Shown: piece after piece, positions 16,101 through 54,931 of the stretch
How the letters are laid out: every line of letters starts with the position of its first letter
Numbering within the stretch: position 1 is the stretch's first letter
DNA from: Naegleria gruberi
Taxonomy: Eukaryota
DNA length: 64,000 nucleotides
Direction: 5' to 3' (one strand)
Assembly: GCA_000004985.1 (NCBI GenBank)
Contig: GG738870.1
Position numbers and translations under genes: made by a program
Notes under the pieces: model-generated
Databases searched by the model: none
What the model saw: the letters and a program-made list of their open reading frames with translations, nothing else
What the model was told of the DNA's origin: nothing

Positions 16101-17171
16101 ATGATTCAGTGTTTGCAACCCATCAAGGTTTTGAAAAAAATGTTTAACAGACACATCAAATCTATTGTTAAACTGAGAATTTTTACTGGTAAATTGGGAT
16201 CAAATTCATTAACCCTTCCAAACATGGTACACATGATGGAGAGAAGGAATTTTCACACTTGTTTTTCATCACAATCCACCACAATAACTCCACAACAATT
16301 TCATGAGAAGGAATCCGAAGAGCAACAACTCATCATTAAACTCAAGATGGCTAAATCAAAAGGTGGAGCTGCTCTCAACAAGAAGGAGGTGAATTTATTT
16401 GTGGAATTGAAATTAAACATTAATGATCTAGGTAAACTAAAGAAGGAAATTGATCAAGTGGAATTTCAAAAAGCAATTGAAAAATTTAATAGAAAAATTG
16501 TTGAAAAATCAAAACATATGGATGAGAGGATGAATGAAAAGATTGACATGACACAATTTTCAATCAAATTGGGAGAATTTGTTATTCAAAAGAATGTCAA
16601 GAAAAGTAATGTTGTTGAATTTCCAATCAACTTTGAGAATTTTCAAGATTGGAATAAGAAGAGAACTCTTTTATTGATGAAAACTCCAACTTTAAGAGAT
16701 GGAGCTGGTTTAACAACAAAAGAAATTCAATTCCTCAAACAATTCCATTTTGATGGAAAGGTTCTCCAGTCCATTGTGAAACATATAGAAAAGAAACCCA
16801 ATAATATGAATTTTGATCGAGTGTTGTATAATAACTTATCAAAGGCAAAAATCAAACCAACTGTTAAAACAGTTACTAAAATATTAAGCTGGATTGAAGC
16901 TCACTTGATTGGGGTTGATCTAAACAAGAGAAAACACACAATAGGGCGTAAGAAAGAACAATCAGTTTCAAGAAATATTGAGGAAAAAAGAAGAGAAAAC
17001 ACAAGCTTGCTTGAGGAATATGAAACTGAATTGGAAGAATTGCAAGAATCCATTGAAAATCACCTTCTTTCAGAAGATGAATCTTCTCACTTGAGAAAAC
17101 TTTTGAAAGAAAAGGAAGAGCTTATCTCAGAATTGAAAGAAACCCTGAAAGAGTTGGCTGAAAAATATTGA
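16101..17171 (+). CDS. Hypothetical K/E-rich coiled-coil protein, 356 aa; alternative ATG at 16140
   Basis: ORF with ATG at 16101, C-terminal heptad-like E/K/L-rich segment, no recognisable domain. Confidence 0.5.
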   Translation: MIQCLQPIKVLKKMFNRHIKSIVKLRIFTGKLGSNSLTLPNMVHMMERRNFHTCFSSQSTTITPQQFHEKESEEQQLIIKLKMAKSKGGAALNKKEVNLFVELKLNINDLGKLKKEIDQVEFQKAIEKFNRKIVEKSKHMDERMNEKIDMTQFSIKLGEFVIQKNVKKSNVVEFPINFENFQDWNKKRTLLLMKTPTLRDGAGLTTKEIQFLKQFHFDGKVLQSIVKHIEKKPNNMNFDRVLYNNLSKAKIKPTVKTVTKILSWIEAHLIGVDLNKRKHTIGRKKEQSVSRNIEEKRRENTSLLEEYETELEELQESIENHLLSEDESSHLRKLLKEKEELISELKETLKELAEKY

Positions 17172-17369: not shown

Positions 17370-18446
17370 ATGAATCAATTACCACAAGAGATAATTGGTC
17401 ATGTTTTTGATTTTCTTGATAGGAATGATTTGTATGCCATGCTGAAGTGTTATCCAGGATTTGTATCTAATTGTTGTCATCATATTCGATTCAAATTGAT
17501 GTATAATTTTATTTCCGAATTGGAATATGATAATAGTCATCAGCCAACATTCAAGTCTAAACGAAAGAAGCGCACTCGTATCAGACACAGACATTTTAGG
17601 AGAGGAGAAGAATATTGGGAAAATTCGAAAAAATTCACACCACGACAAACTTTAATGATTTTTTATCCAAAGAAGAGCCTGAAAGTTCTATTCGAAACTG
17701 TTGGGCCATATTTATTGAGCAAGATCAATAATTGGAAACCATTTGTGGAGAGAGATGAAAAAATGATTAAGAAGTTTTATTATCATTTTTATAATATCAA
17801 GCTTTCATTAGAATTATTCGAATCTAGAATTTGTAATTCAACTATTTATTGTAGGACTTCGTTTAGTTCAAAATCCCTGGAAACTTGCTTGGATATTACC
17901 AAAATTTACAAAACAAGATTACTCAAGTTAAATACCATTATAGCCACTGAGCATTTGGAGAATTTAAGGAATGAATTCTATGCAGCATACACCAAATTAG
18001 TGAAAGAATATAAGGTCAATAATGAATTTTTGGAGGTTTGGAATGAGAAATTTAAATTGACCAACAATATTCTGAGCTATTCGAAATCAGTCCAAAATTC
18101 AAAGAAAGCCATTTCATTTATTATTACAACTCTGTGGACTACCCATGATAATATGTTAGATTTTCTACCCCTCCTTAGAGGTTTGGATAGAACCAATAGC
18201 TCTAAACGTACAGATGCTTCGAGAATCCTTCTTGACATATGCGCCTCCAAAACAACCATTAGTGTTAACTCAGATCAGCATCTGAAAAGAATTCAAAATC
18301 TATTGGAATGTTGCTCCTACTTTAAGCACTCAATTTCTGAATTCAAAACATTGTTGGAACGATTTTTTGATAAGATGGTGGTTGTGCCAGAAATGAAAGA
18401 AGAATTGAACTCTCTTAAAACTCGAGTATTTAATAAATATGAATAA
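17370..18446 (+). CDS. F-box domain protein, 358 aa
   Basis: N-terminal 'LPQEIIGHVFDFLDRNDLYAMLKCYPGF' fits the F-box consensus (LPxEIL..I...L....L......V...W). Confidence 0.6.
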   Translation: MNQLPQEIIGHVFDFLDRNDLYAMLKCYPGFVSNCCHHIRFKLMYNFISELEYDNSHQPTFKSKRKKRTRIRHRHFRRGEEYWENSKKFTPRQTLMIFYPKKSLKVLFETVGPYLLSKINNWKPFVERDEKMIKKFYYHFYNIKLSLELFESRICNSTIYCRTSFSSKSLETCLDITKIYKTRLLKLNTIIATEHLENLRNEFYAAYTKLVKEYKVNNEFLEVWNEKFKLTNNILSYSKSVQNSKKAISFIITTLWTTHDNMLDFLPLLRGLDRTNSSKRTDASRILLDICASKTTISVNSDQHLKRIQNLLECCSYFKHSISEFKTLLERFFDKMVVVPEMKEELNSLKTRVFNKYE

Positions 18447-19588: not shown

Positions 19589-20362
19589 TTATTTTGCCCA
19601 ATGCTTTTCAGGTGTCTTTTTCAATTATTAAGGGTTGTAACAAATCAAAACATGAAACTTACCTTTCCCATTTCTTCTAGTTTCTTATTGTGTTCCTCAA
19701 ACATTTTGTGATAGTGTGGTTTAAGTAATTCTGGAATTTCCATTGGCTAGTAGTTTTGAATTGATTCAATATATTATTCCAAGTCCAATACTTCATCAAA
19801 TACTAACCTCATTAAACCAATGGTGTTCTTCCTCATTTAAAATCTTTTGAACTTCCAAATTAATTCTGTTTGCTTTTGTTCCGTATGAAAAATCAGCTGT
19901 GAAAATTCAAACAAATCATAAGAAATTAACAACTAATTAAAACTGGATCCAAAAACATACTCAAATAGGCCATCCAAAAAGGAACCACCAACATTGGAAT
20001 ATAATTTAATGGCAGAGGATCAAATTGCCTTATCCGTATCATTCTTCCAACAGCAACAGTTGCCATCAATGAATAAAATCCTACACAATATTTTGCATTC
20101 ATTCCGAATTAAATAATATGATAAATTAAAAACACAAATAATTATTATCATTGTGGTGAATATTCCATCATGTAATTTCCATACCTCCGAGCCACCATAC
20201 ACGATCCCTCATTGTTGCCATACGTGTGGCAATTTCAAAATCTCTTCTCCTTTTCAGTGTCTTGAGTTTTAGTAATTGTTGTTGAATGGCTGCATCACGT
20301 TGTTTATCTTCAATTTGTTTGAGAATCGGAGTGGTGAAATATCCAACGATTGATTGACCCAT
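19589..20362 (-). CDS. Small 5-exon gene encoding a hydrophobic membrane protein of about 175 aa, unknown function; exons 20185..20362, 19961..20080, 19808..19896, 19663..19746, 19589..19615
   Basis: All junctions have gt..ag introns in consistent phase (gtatgg..gtgtag 102 nt; gtatgt..tcacag 64 nt; gttagt..actag 61 nt; gtaagt..aaaaag 47 nt). Product: MGQSIVGYFTTPILKQIEDKQRDAAIQQQLLKLKTLKRRRDFEIATRMATMRDRVWWLGGFYSLMATVAVGRMIRIRQFDPLPLNYIPMLVVPFWMAYLSMTDFSYGTKANRINLEVQKILNEEEHHWFNEPMEIPELLKPHYHKMFEEHNKKLEEMGKTPEKHWAK. Confidence 0.55.
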
Positions 20363-20518
20363 TTTTTAATTAATCTCAATTCAACACTGGAGATGAATTC
20401 CAGTAGCGAAATGGAACAATATTAGGTTTCTGATTAGTAGTAGGTGAAATGGTTAATAATATGATATAACAAACTCATTGTTTGCACATATATTCCTTTA
20501 TTTATAATAACATATGAA

Positions 20519-20588
20519 AGGGAGATAGTTCAGTGGTAGAACATGGGATTGTGGTTTTAAGATCAGGGTCCGATTCCCTGTCTTCCTA
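20519..20588 (+). tRNA. tRNA-like Pol III gene with a non-canonical anticodon arm (possible tRNA pseudogene or derived element)
   Basis: aGGGAGATAGTTCAGTGGTAGAACA...CAGGGTCCGATTCCCTGTCTTCCTA has a 7-bp acceptor stem, T8, a GTTC/GAAC D-stem with AGTGGTA loop (A-box), a CAGGG/CCCTG T-stem with B-box-like loop, and a T6 terminator 4 nt downstream. The 20-nt segment between D and T arms (TGGGATTGTGGTTTTAAGAT) cannot form a 5-bp anticodon stem. Confidence 0.5.
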
Positions 20589-20725
20589 CACCTTTTTTAA
20601 CACAGCTTTTTTGCTTCTTTACACAAGTGTAGTTTTTTGTCCTTTTTTTAAGTTTATTCTAAATGGTTTTTTGCCTTAATTCTAAGATTAATTTAGTTGG
20701 GTTTATTATTAATAAATAATTGATT

Positions 20726-21301
20726 TTATTGACATTTAGTTTCTTCTTCAACCAAAACAATGTGATAACCGTGTTCTGTCTTGAAGATCTTACTGACTTC
20801 ACCTACAGGAGTATTGAAAGCAACCTCACTGAAAGGTCCAACCATTTTAGTTCTTCCGAACCAGCCTATATGATTAGTAATTGTTGAAATGGATCATAAT
20901 TATTTGCATACTTACCAAGATTACCACCCTTGTTCTTTGATGAACAATCAGAGTATTGTTCAGCAAGTTTACCAAATTCAGAAGATGGAACTTTAACATC
21001 TCTTGAGAGCCATCCTTCTTGAAGCTATATTAAATTATTATTATTAATATTTGATCATCAAATTATTATTCCGCATTCATCAATATGATATTGTCACAAA
21101 TAAATTCAACAAATCCGAGAAATTTACCTTCTTCATGACTTCTTCAGCCTTGCCCATCTTTTCGCACAAAATATGACGAGCTTGGACTTCCTTTACGGTA
21201 CCAAGTTTGTCGTCCTTTCCAGAGCTCTTGTCGTTTCCTCCTTTCTTTGCTCCTCCCTTGTCTCCTCCTTTCTTATTGTCAGCAGCCTTCTTTGGTGGCA
21301 T
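20726..21301 (-). CDS. pin4: Parvulin-type peptidyl-prolyl cis-trans isomerase PIN4/Par14; 3 exons (21128..21301, 20916..21024, 20726..20864)
   Basis: MPPKKAADNKKGGDKGGAKKGG...VQARHILCEKMGKAEEVMKK|LQEGWLSRDVKVPSSEFGKLAEQYSDCSSKNKGGNLG|WFGRTKMVGPFSEVAFNTPVGEVSKIFKTEHGYHIVLVEEETK is colinear with human Par14 (..[61 protein letters not shown]...KFGYHIIMVEGRK). Introns are 102 nt and 51 nt, gtaaat/gtaagt..atatag. Confidence 0.85.
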
Positions 21302-21505
21302 TTTGAATTTTTTTTAATTTATTTTTATTAATAAATTGAATTAAACAATGGCTTTCTAAGATTTACCAATGATTGGAAAATGACTTCAGTTGATCATCAA
21401 TTAATAAATCGGCAGTTAGGTTTTATTATTTTCGGTTCGATTGGTCTTGGTTGAATGGAATCAAACAAATGTTCTTAAAATAAATAATTACCAATTCCGA
21501 AAAAA

Positions 21506-21916
21506 ATGATGTACTCCCCTGTTGCTGCCTACGAGCAAGATTTCAAACAATATGAAATTCCTGAAAAGCCATCAAAATTAACAACACAATACATTAAACA
21601 ATTAGTTAACATCAAGGATGAAATGGAAAAGGAAATTTTACATTTAAATCTTTCATTGGATAAGTTAGGGGTTGGATTAAAAGGATCTCTTCTTGATAAA
21701 GATGGTTTCCCAAGATCGGATATGGATTTAAATGATGTTGCTTCAAAGAGACATAGAATTGCTTGTTTGCAAAATGATTTTTCATCACTAATGGATACAA
21801 TTCAAAATTATTTATTTGAATTACATGAAGAAACAAGAGCAAATAATCCAAATTCTCAGGTAATTGATATTAAACCATTTGACGTTGAGAGTTTATACAA
21901 TGAAGATGAATTGTAA
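21506..21916 (+). CDS. PSMD9/Nas2-like proteasome assembly chaperone N-terminal domain protein (136 aa; no PDZ domain found in this ORF)
   Basis: 'LLDKDGFPRSDMDLNDVASKRHRIACLQNDFSSLMDTIQNYLFELH' parallels human PSMD9 '[46 protein letters not shown]'. Confidence 0.55.
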   Translation: MMYSPVAAYEQDFKQYEIPEKPSKLTTQYIKQLVNIKDEMEKEILHLNLSLDKLGVGLKGSLLDKDGFPRSDMDLNDVASKRHRIACLQNDFSSLMDTIQNYLFELHEETRANNPNSQVIDIKPFDVESLYNEDEL

Positions 21917-22231
21917 TATGTTATTATATTAGAAAGTACAATAGTTCAGATTGTTAAATTATAATTTTCATGAACATTAATTGCTAAGGTTGTATTGTTG
22001 GTAAACTGACTTTCCTGTCTCTTTTAACCATAAGGTCACATCACTGACAAGTGATTGATATAAATTTTCAATTCCATCATTAAAAAAAATCCTTCAAAAA
22101 ACCAACACCTGTTTCATCATTACTTTTTGTTGCTGATCATCAAACCTTGTCGACAACAAACAAATAATTGAAACATTTATCTTCTCGCTAGAACACTGAA
22201 TTGGAATAACAATTTTTTGAGGAAGGAAAAT

Positions 22232-23146
22232 ATGAAAACTTTTAACCGCCCAAATTTTGTAGTGTTTGCCTTGTTGTTGGCCGTTATTTTGGTTTCAACT
22301 TGTGTTTTGGAAATTTACGGAAAAAAACAATCACAACTGGCTCATACCTTTGATACTCAATTTGAAAAGATTTTAAAGTCGGATTTGAGTGGTCTTTCCT
22401 ATGCCGAACAACAAAAAGCTCTCCAAGAGCAAATGAAATCAATTAGCAAACTTACTAAAAATCAATCTGATTTGAAAGTTGCTTGGCAATCATTGGATTC
22501 TGTGGAGGCTAAAATTAAAAAGGAATATATGGAAAATAACAAGAAGGTTATTGTTGCTCATGCAAAGGTTTCAAAGGCTTGCAAACTTGTTCAATATTAT
22601 AAGAATTTGTTGAAGAAATTGCAAATTGAAATTGTCAAGATTAAACTTACCATCAAGAAGACTAAATTGACTAAATCATATCTCAAACTCATCAAAAAGT
22701 ACAAACTTGAAATGAAGAAGGCTTATGAAATTTACATTTCCATTGTTAAGGTATACAGAGAAATCTATAAGGAATACCTTATTTCCAAGAAGGAAATGTC
22801 CAAGCAAATTTCTACCATCAAGATGCAATTGAAGATAATCAAGATTATGAAGCAAAAATTGTACTCTACTCAAAGTTTGGAAATTGAAATTACCAAGTTG
22901 GTTGAAGATTGGGAACACATCATTCATGAAGAAGAAATTGAATACATCCATGAAAAGGAAAAGTGTCATTGTCCAGTTGAGTATAGGCCAGTTTGTGGTG
23001 TTAATGGTCTCACTTATGGAAGTGCTTGTACTGCAAGATGTGCTGATGTTTCTATTCACTATTATGGGGTATGTAAATGTATTCCACAAGAAGTTATTGT
23101 CGTTAAGGAATCTTCCTTGACCTCAGCTATTTCTTCAAGTCAATAA
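22232..23146 (+). CDS. Secreted coiled-coil protein with C-terminal Kazal-type serine protease inhibitor domain
   Basis: ATG 22232; signal peptide MKTFNRPNFVVFALLLAVILVSTCV; long K/E/I-rich heptad region; C-terminal 'CHCPVEYRPVCGVNGLTYGSACTARCADVSIHYYGVC' matches the Kazal cysteine pattern. Confidence 0.65.
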   Translation: MKTFNRPNFVVFALLLAVILVSTCVLEIYGKKQSQLAHTFDTQFEKILKSDLSGLSYAEQQKALQEQMKSISKLTKNQSDLKVAWQSLDSVEAKIKKEYMENNKKVIVAHAKVSKACKLVQYYKNLLKKLQIEIVKIKLTIKKTKLTKSYLKLIKKYKLEMKKAYEIYISIVKVYREIYKEYLISKKEMSKQISTIKMQLKIIKIMKQKLYSTQSLEIEITKLVEDWEHIIHEEEIEYIHEKEKCHCPVEYRPVCGVNGLTYGSACTARCADVSIHYYGVCKCIPQEVIVVKESSLTSAISSSQ

Positions 23147-54033: not shown

Positions 54034-54315
54034 TTGTAATTAGCGCTAAATTAAAATACAACACAACCCTTCTTCATTTGGAAGCCTCATAAACCGAATC
54101 AGTTAGTGGCTTTCTCCACAATTTTTGAATTGATGCCAGATCGTGAGATGAAATTTTAAGGATTTGGCACTTGAAAAGATTTCAAAGTTGGCTCAATCTT
54201 CAGCTAATTATCAAAAGATTGTTGTTTGATTTCTTCTAGAAAACCCAATTTTTTTAAAGATAACAACTGTTGGTCTACTTATTCTATGCAATTTTTTAAA
54301 AGATATTAACGTGAA

Positions 54316-54387
54316 GGGACCATGGTCTAGTGGTATGATTCTCGCTTTGGGTGCGAGAGGCCGTGGGTTCGATTCCCACTGGTCCCC
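54316..54387 (+). tRNA. tRNA-Pro (anticodon UGG)
   Basis: GGGACCATGGTCTAGTGGTATGATTCTCGCTTTGGGTGCGAGAGGCCGTGGGTTCGATTCCCACTGGTCCCC gives a perfect cloverleaf (7/4/5/5 stems) with anticodon loop CTTTGGGTG; near-identical to metazoan tRNA-Pro; T-rich terminator follows. Confidence 0.9.
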
Positions 54388-54432
54388 GATGCATTTTATT
54401 TTGTTATCTTTTTTGTTGCATACGTCATCCAT

Positions 54433-54482
54433 NNNNNNNNNNNNNNNNNNNNNNNNNNNNNNNNNNNNNNNNNNNNNNNNNN
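54433..54482. other. Assembly gap (50 N)
   Basis: Run of 50 n characters; truncates the 3' end of the adjacent minus-strand gene. Confidence 1.
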
Positions 54483-54931
54483 CGTTCAACAATTAATAGG
54501 GCTTTTTTTTTGATGTTGTCTTCGAATAACTCATCTCTTTCATCCGTCTCTTCCTCAACAGAAGAACAAATTCTAGTTACCAATTTTGCTACCAGAGCAT
54601 CTTTTCTAAGATTACCTCCTGTCTCTCCAAATTCACTCTTCAAAAACTCCTTCAAAAACTTGACATTTTTCATTGTCAATTGATCACGGATTGCCTCTTC
54701 CACATTCTCAAACTTTCGTTTTGTTCCTTTTTTTAGCTTCTTTGGTTTTTCTTCTTTTTTCTTGCCTGGTGTTTTTTCATCTTTCTTTTTACTGGGTGTG
54801 TTATCTGGTTGATCTTGTGTACAGGTCCATGAAGGAACTTGAGATACTGAAGGTAGCAAATCTATTAAATTGCTATAGCTGGAGAAGCTTTGTGGTGAAG
54901 TGTCATAGCTACTCGATTGCTTGTTTGACAT
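54483..54931 (-). CDS. SAP-domain protein, K-rich; 3' end lost in the N gap (partial)
   Basis: ATG 54931; 'LTMKNVKFLKEFLKSEFGETGGNLRKDALVAKLV' fits the SAP motif (L..L.V.eLK.eL...gL...G.K..Li.RL). The ORF runs into the N run. Confidence 0.5.

Follow-up and report, generated by a model that had tools for sequence, protein, structure and literature searches.

In eukaryotes, the G at position -1 of cytosolic tRNA-His(GUG) is added by Thg1 opposite the discriminator A73; bacterial and organellar tRNA-His encode this G-1, paired with C73. Human and yeast tRNA-His have a D arm of the GTATAGTGGTTAGTAC type, and a first acceptor pair A1-U72 is unusual for tRNA-His. In cytosolic class I tRNAs, neither a 3-nt variable region together with a G·A mismatch nor a 6-nt anticodon loop is normal, and the standard T loop reads T54-Psi55-C56-R57-A58, with a near-universal U at position 55. 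In Pol III units of type 2, the A box lies at tRNA positions 8-19 and the B box at 52-62, the consensus of the latter being GGTTCGANTCC. Finally, a SINE derived from a tRNA is characterised by many dispersed copies, a tRNA-unrelated body, a 3' tail and target-site duplications.

For the genome of Naegleria gruberi, 924 tRNAscan-SE hits have been reported, 41 of which were flagged as pseudogenes (PMC2888827, supplement 2). Our literature searches turned up tDNA counts alone, and nowhere in them did we find a description of a Naegleria tRNA-His or of the locus presented here. The window that we analysed, i.e., the whole 64-kb stretch of DNA, is eukaryotic nuclear DNA of N. gruberi (~32% GC), with a gene content that includes Mediator Med13, FYRN/FYRC, calpain, ELAPOR1-like, TUTase, SNF1-like kinase and Nas2 genes. 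It contains two tRNA genes, a tRNA-His-like gene at 20519-20588 and a tRNA-Pro(UGG) gene at 54316-54387. The former, with a GC content of 46%, is, as far as can be judged from its sequence, probably a tRNA-His(GUG) gene copy of the nuclear (cytosolic) type that has degenerated.

Identity and conserved parts of the tRNA-His(GUG)-like gene

The His-like gene lies on the plus strand, as do all its parts described below, and comprises 70 nt including the discriminator A73 (20588). ARAGORN called a tRNA-His with anticodon GTG at 20519-20589, and the Rfam tRNA family RF00005 matched 20519-20588 at full length (model positions 1-71) with 50.8 bits (E = 6e-8), above the curated gathering score of 29. 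A sequence-only reading of the window had placed a tRNA-like gene here and recommended a check with Infernal and the Rfam tRNA model; the two calls confirmed that this gene is real. Its score was lower than that of the canonical tRNA-Pro of the window (62.4 bits with the same family), whose anticodon stem consists of five Watson-Crick pairs. With a permissive Rfam threshold, we only obtained chance-level overlaps (ceN67 snoRNA, 23.9 bits vs. 70) and no further tRNA-like match in the window.

In the ARAGORN fold, all 16 pairs of the acceptor stem (7 bp, one of them G·U), the D stem (4 bp, 20528-20531 with 20539-20542) and the T stem (5 bp) were standard, as in a class I cloverleaf, and U8, A14, G18-G19, A21, G53, U54, C56, A58 and C61 could all be read from the sequence. 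The A-box-like segment TAGTTCAGTGG covered 20526-20536 (tRNA positions 8-19), including U8, A14, G18 and G19. Within the T arm (CAGGG-TCCGATT-CCCTG, 20564-20580, found with both Rfam and ARAGORN), the B-box-like segment GGTCCGATTCC at 20567-20577 agreed at 10 of 11 positions with the consensus GGTTCGANTCC. The T loop, UCCGAUU, departed from the standard one at 20570, where U55 is replaced by C. The sequence-only reading had described all of the acceptor, D and T arms as canonical; this stood for the three stems, but not for the T loop and the B box. As GGGTCCGATTCCC, which carries C55, is also present in predicted phage tRNAs, this change alone is not disabling. A T6 run, likely the Pol III terminator, was confirmed at 20593-20598, 4 nt beyond A20588 (intervening CACC), and more T6/T7 runs followed at about 20608, 20634 and 20644. 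Labelling the locus a Pol III gene is reasonable, given its eukaryotic host and the presence of both boxes and of the T-run; from the same three signals, it is probably transcribed by Pol III.

The anticodon loop UUGUGGU was intact, with U33, the anticodon GUG (GTG at 20551-20553) and G37. This loop, combined with A73 and with no G encoded at -1 (the base at 20518 is A), amounts, at the sequence level, to the signature of a eukaryotic cytosolic tRNA-His. Other isotypes were also considered, using 5-bp registers with loops of 3-11 nt, and were discarded; the His reading was the only one to give both U33 and a purine at position 37. The first acceptor pair was A1-U72. No second tRNA-His was present in the 64-kb window.

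The anticodon arm and its predicted folding

The anticodon arm (TGGGA-TTGTGGT-TTTAA, 20544-20560) was defective according to ARAGORN, Rfam and an enumeration of every 5-bp stem with a loop of 3-11 nt over positions 25-45 of the gene. This enumeration recovered no Watson-Crick 5-bp stem in any register. To that extent it bore out the initial claim that the 20-mer between the D and T arms (TGGGATTGTGGTTTTAAGAT, 20544-20563) cannot form such a stem, but the claim was too strong once G·U pairs were permitted. All five pairs were then formed in the Infernal alignment (U26-A41, G27·U40, G28·U39, G29·U38, and A30-U37), with a 6-nt loop and a 4-nt variable region (AGAT, 20560-20563). The ARAGORN fold retained the 7-nt loop UUGUGGU with four of the five pairs, two Watson-Crick (U26-A42 and A30-U38) and two G·U, the remaining position being a G·A mismatch, and had a variable region of 3 nt (GAT, 20561-20563), compared with 4-5 nt in class I tRNAs. 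Sliding the 3' strand by one base along the T-run is enough to switch from one register to the other, and a 5-bp stem and a 7-nt loop are not obtained together. The 3' strand of the stem is this T-run (TTTT A), and none of the three G's on the 5' strand lies opposite a C, their partners being U (or A).

A covariance-model fold combining a normal anticodon stem with a defined isotype had been put forward as the result that would overturn the initial reading. We recovered half of it: the ARAGORN and Infernal folds both yielded a defined isotype, His (GUG), yet the stem was normal in neither. Moreover, a stem with five Watson-Crick or G·U pairs and a 6-8-nt loop arose in 40% of the shuffles of the same 21 nt, and the wobble stem is thus at chance level.

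The arm also appeared to be too short. The distance from the D stem to the T loop was 26 nt, compared with 27 nt in three phage His tRNAs (L010, L012, and L014) that share its D arm and have an almost identical T arm; by this comparison, the anticodon arm lacks one base relative to the canonical geometry. Rescue by an intron was ruled out, as the initial reading had proposed: the interval between the D and T arms (21 nt vs. the canonical 22-23) is shorter than normal, not longer, and leaves no room for one, and ARAGORN returned the same fold when introns were allowed.

Folded alone, the 21-nt arm had a dG of 0. For the whole molecule, cloverleaves with any of the anticodon-stem registers had predicted energies of -12.3 to -15.2 kcal/mol, compared with -16.0 kcal/mol when the anticodon arm was left open, the stem costing the cloverleaf +0.8 to +3.7 kcal/mol. 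An arm repaired in silico (one extra U and UUU changed to CCC) gave a cloverleaf of -23.5 kcal/mol, which sets the deficit of the stem at ~8 kcal/mol. In terms of these modelled energies, the original statement that the arm "cannot fold" seems fair. The minimum free energy of the unrepaired molecule (-23.5 kcal/mol) corresponded to a non-cloverleaf fold, in which a predicted hairpin of 12 pairs (positions 25-56, 20543-20574) replaced the anticodon and T arms. This hairpin uses C55 and C56 and contains two G·G mismatches; the pair probabilities were 0.99 for its pairs G28-C53 and G29-C52 and ~0.001 for the T stem. The fold was 7.5 kcal/mol below the best cloverleaf-like structure, C55 contributing about 3 kcal/mol to the hairpin, and its energy was only modestly better than that of shuffled sequences (z = -2.3, 4 of 200). 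Such predictions leave out modifications, Mg2+ and tertiary contacts, and even the good tRNA-Pro of the window lost its D arm in silico and formed no full cloverleaf.

The state of the arm is central to whether the locus could be a functional tRNA-His(GUG) isodecoder, either with an arm formed by U27-A43, G·A, G·U, G·U and A31-U39 around a 7-nt loop or with one T missing from the assembly. The His anticodon loop, A73, the acceptor, D and T helices, the promoter boxes and the terminator are all intact, the Rfam score is far over the threshold, and each G of the 5' strand is still able to pair with U. One additional T would even produce the canonical geometry, with 5 bp, a 7-nt loop and a 4-nt variable region. 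However, the anticodon stem adds no stability in any register, and its geometry is always compromised, the 7-nt loop requiring the 3-nt variable region and the G·A mismatch and the 5-bp stem requiring the 6-nt loop. The replacement of U55 by C, the strong competing fold that is predicted and the A1-U72 pair (unusual for a tRNA-His) point in the same direction. We therefore consider it rather unlikely that the locus is such an isodecoder and, jointly with this, that stacking on the D stem, modifications and Mg2+ would stabilise its arm, Thg1 would add G-1 opposite A73, and the tRNA would be charged and used.

Genomic setting and search for related copies

The His-like tDNA sits in a 364-nt spacer between the 3' end of a PIN4 gene and a PLGRKT-like gene. 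The latter, a PLGRKT/DUF2368-like gene whose first exon is at 20168-20362 on the minus strand (from the ORF list; DUF2368 was assigned from the orthologues in L001 and L024), is the divergent neighbour, and its ATG at 20362(-) is 157 nt away from the 5' end of the tRNA. The convergent neighbour, a PIN4-type parvulin gene with three exons (20726-21301, minus strand), has its stop 138 nt past the tRNA 3' end; the protein was 100% identical to N. gruberi XP_002676845 and 89% identical to the protein of N. lovaniensis.

Around the tDNA (20168-23146), the gene order in the window was DUF2368(-), tDNA, PIN4(-), Nas2(+), and Kazal(+). The order in N. lovaniensis (L001, 10001-15952) and N. fowleri (L024, 10001-20746) was PIN4(+), Sacchrp_dh(-), ..., Nas2(+), Kazal-like(+), and DUF2368(+), and the His-like tDNA was located exactly at the gene-order breakpoint with respect to these two species. 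Between Sacchrp_dh and Nas2, N. fowleri has non-LTR retrotransposon genes (RNase_H; Exo_endo_phos_2 with RVT_1; L024, 12389-17889) that are missing from the orthologous interval of N. lovaniensis (L001). The latter species has a dispersed 5S rRNA gene (104.9 bits; L001, 16444-16562) ~490 nt downstream of its DUF2368 gene, without a counterpart in the N. gruberi window.

Neither the tRNA nor a remnant of it was found at the PIN4 loci of N. lovaniensis (L001), N. fowleri (two assemblies, L024 and L025) and Willaertia magna (L002). The canonical tRNA-Pro, taken as a control, was equally absent from its own syntenic loci, L026 and L027 (W. magna), and a missing tRNA at a syntenic locus thus says nothing on function. 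The first of these control loci is a Naegleria-like metagenome contig (ENA ERZ27315067, contig k141_1564119) that shares the TUTase-ELAPOR1-Med13-RCC1 order with the tRNA-Pro region, matching the window at 40.7-54 kb, and whose RCC1-like protein was 67% identical to that of the window. The positions of tDNAs are not conserved among the Naegleria and Willaertia compared. In ~80 kb of non-redundant DNA from the relatives, we found no tRNA gene, vs. two in the 64 kb of N. gruberi. The absence of both tRNA genes of the window from the syntenic loci of relatives and the 924 tDNAs reported suggest that tDNAs may have spread specifically in the lineage of N. gruberi.

A regulatory RNA or an insulator tDNA had also been offered in the initial reading, and the gene could have been kept for a non-translational role, as a boundary bound by TFIIIC/Pol III, as a promoter-proximal modulator, or as the source of a tRNA-like small RNA formed via the alternative hairpin. 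The lesions are concentrated between the A and B boxes, sparing these boxes and the helices that overlap them, and the tDNA is both upstream of a divergent Pol II gene, at the distance given above, and at the breakpoint with N. lovaniensis and N. fowleri; the energy gap between the hairpin and the cloverleaf, together with the contribution of C55, would also fit such a role. However, the sparing of the boxes is also expected of a young pseudogene, and the B box itself bears the C55 change. The alternative hairpin is not conserved anywhere it could be checked, and the whole-molecule fold is only modestly more stable than those of shuffled sequences. A role of this kind seems to us improbable. 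It is very improbable that the locus encodes a "slippery" tRNA-His-like RNA, in which the all-wobble T-run stem and C55 would favour the hairpin (25-56) in the service of a non-decoding role, the gene then not being a decaying one. If this were true, the product could be a regulatory small RNA or a decoy for Thg1/HisRS, or the locus a Pol III/TFIIIC element controlling the PLGRKT-like promoter.

No further copy or fragment of the His-like gene was present in the 64-kb window. Pattern scans were run over JGI metagenomes (two scans), 185,579 bacterial and archaeal genomes (two scans) and the viral contigs of IMG/VR (four scans). The 5' half of the gene retrieved only two unrelated phage tRNAs from IMG/VR and no exact match from the 185,579 prokaryotic genomes, the anticodon arm pattern had no match in the viral contigs, and the two metagenome scans retrieved nothing related. 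A 20-mer made of the D arm plus stem had four matches in the prokaryotic genomes and IMG/VR, none of them continuing as a tRNA: the three bacterial ones apparently belonged to one conserved coding gene, and the one in IMG/VR was not a tRNA either. The additional copies that the initial reading had suggested looking for were thus missing from the 64-kb window, from the loci of the relatives and from the viral, prokaryotic and metagenome collections. Its suggestion that the gene might be the seed of a tRNA-derived SINE found no support: the gene is single-copy in the window, the terminator follows it directly, no copies occurred in the public collections scanned, and the 8-nt direct repeat in its flanks does not exceed chance as a target-site duplication (p about 0.4), leaving no sign of a SINE or of a recent insertion.

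These searches also bear on the native status of the gene, which could alternatively be a fragment of mitochondrial tRNA-His DNA inserted in the nucleus, an element that founded a SINE of tRNA origin, or an artefact of sequencing or assembly within the T-run. Bacterial- and phage-type His tRNAs do have D arms and loops similar to GTTCAGTGGTAGAAC and UUGUGGU, and no feature of an assembly is more prone to error than the length of a homopolymer. An organellar origin is at odds with the A's at -1 and 73, where organellar and bacterial tRNA-His have G-1:C73. The GC content of the gene also argues against a non-native sequence, as do the restriction of the tRNA-like sequence to just 70 nt within ordinary nuclear intergenic flanks and the lack of an exact match to the 5' half among the prokaryotic genomes, whereas a SINE founder is disfavoured by the absence of copies, fragments and significant flanking repeats reported above. 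We regard all these non-native origins as hardly credible.

The surroundings of the second tRNA gene showed features of their own. A perfect 11-nt inverted repeat (AAAGATAACAA at 54256-54266 and TTGTTATCTTT at 54401-54411), of a length reached in 0 of 2000 shuffles, flanks the tRNA-Pro(UGG) gene, and a 22-nt motif is repeated upstream of it, at 54246 and 54289. These repeats might serve as a promoter element or be what a mobile unit has left behind. TGAA directly precedes +1 in both tRNA genes of the window, with an (A/T)ATAAC-like motif a few bases upstream (20505-20518 and 54302-54315), which may represent a shared Pol III upstream or start-site motif, with n = 2 only. A run of N (scaffold gap) starts at 54433, 46 nt downstream of tRNA-Pro, within the ORF 54425-54931(-). 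Elsewhere in the window, two tandem ORFs of similar size (16101-17171 and 17370-18446; 356 and 358 aa), the second with a weak N-terminal match to F-box, may be a local pair of paralogues.

Origin of the gene and comparison with known systems

Among the explanations first proposed for this locus, that of a tRNA pseudogene fitted best with our results, i.e., a short arm that does not stabilise the molecule, C in place of U55 and a covariance score that is low but significant, with a His-type loop that is intact. With Pol III control regions that are essentially intact (A-box-like segment, B-box-like segment and T6), binding of TFIIIC and transcription would probably persist. The transcript would have no stable, correctly spaced anticodon arm and, according to the predicted folds, would tend to misfold into the hairpin that consumes its T arm; it would therefore likely be processed inefficiently or removed by tRNA surveillance, with little or no part in the decoding of CAU and CAC. 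The simplest history of the degenerate copy would start from a stem of the TGGGA/TCCCA type and comprise C-to-T transitions on its 3' strand, a one-base slip in the resulting T-run and a change of U55 to C, this ancestral state and the number of lesions being putative. The setting would be a favourable one, an AT-rich genome (32% GC) in which about 900 reported tDNAs would provide ample redundancy. Crippled copies are expected with a redundancy of this size, some of the reported hits being flagged as pseudogenes.

Some observations count against pure decay. The changes in the stem all preserve G·U pairing, and the other 16 helix pairs as well as most of both boxes were spared. Selection, acting on a functional variant or on the promoter boxes, could also have produced this uneven pattern of lesions.

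The locus should be annotated as a tRNA-His(GUG) of low confidence or as a pseudogene of it, and be excluded when tRNA gene copies are counted to estimate codon adaptation in N. gruberi. A spread of tDNAs in this species would be a process expected to leave crippled copies such as this one.

Several known systems can be compared with the locus. The tDNA boundary elements and TFIIIC sites of yeast and other eukaryotes resemble it in that an element with an A box and a B box lies between two closely spaced Pol II genes, but at the His-like locus this likeness is one of position only. Some tRNA-like RNAs adopt folds other than the cloverleaf (e.g., pre-tRNAs entering small-RNA pathways), as would the transcript of the His-like gene, in which a predicted hairpin replaces the anticodon and T arms; the hairpin has, however, only 12 pairs and its two G·G mismatches.

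With the eukaryotic cytosolic tRNA-His(GUG) genes, the locus shares a loop of the UUGUGGN type with GUG, U33 and G37, and A73 with no G encoded at -1. The variable region is short in both (4 nt in His tRNAs), and both have internal promoter boxes, A and B, and end in an oligo-T terminator. The His-like gene differs from them in its anticodon stem, which has no G-C pair and is one base short, in the C that replaces U55 and in A1-U72. Its D arm is of the GTTCAGTGGTAGAAC type and not of the GTATAGTGGTTAGTAC type of human and yeast tRNA-His. Finally, like the pseudogenes flagged by tRNAscan-SE and other low-scoring tDNAs (41 of 924 in N. gruberi; PMC2888827), the gene combines the remnants of a cloverleaf with one damaged arm, a reduced score and a lineage-specific position. 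The damage is limited here to one strand of one stem and one base of the T loop, so that the gene, if a pseudogene, is probably a young or mild case.
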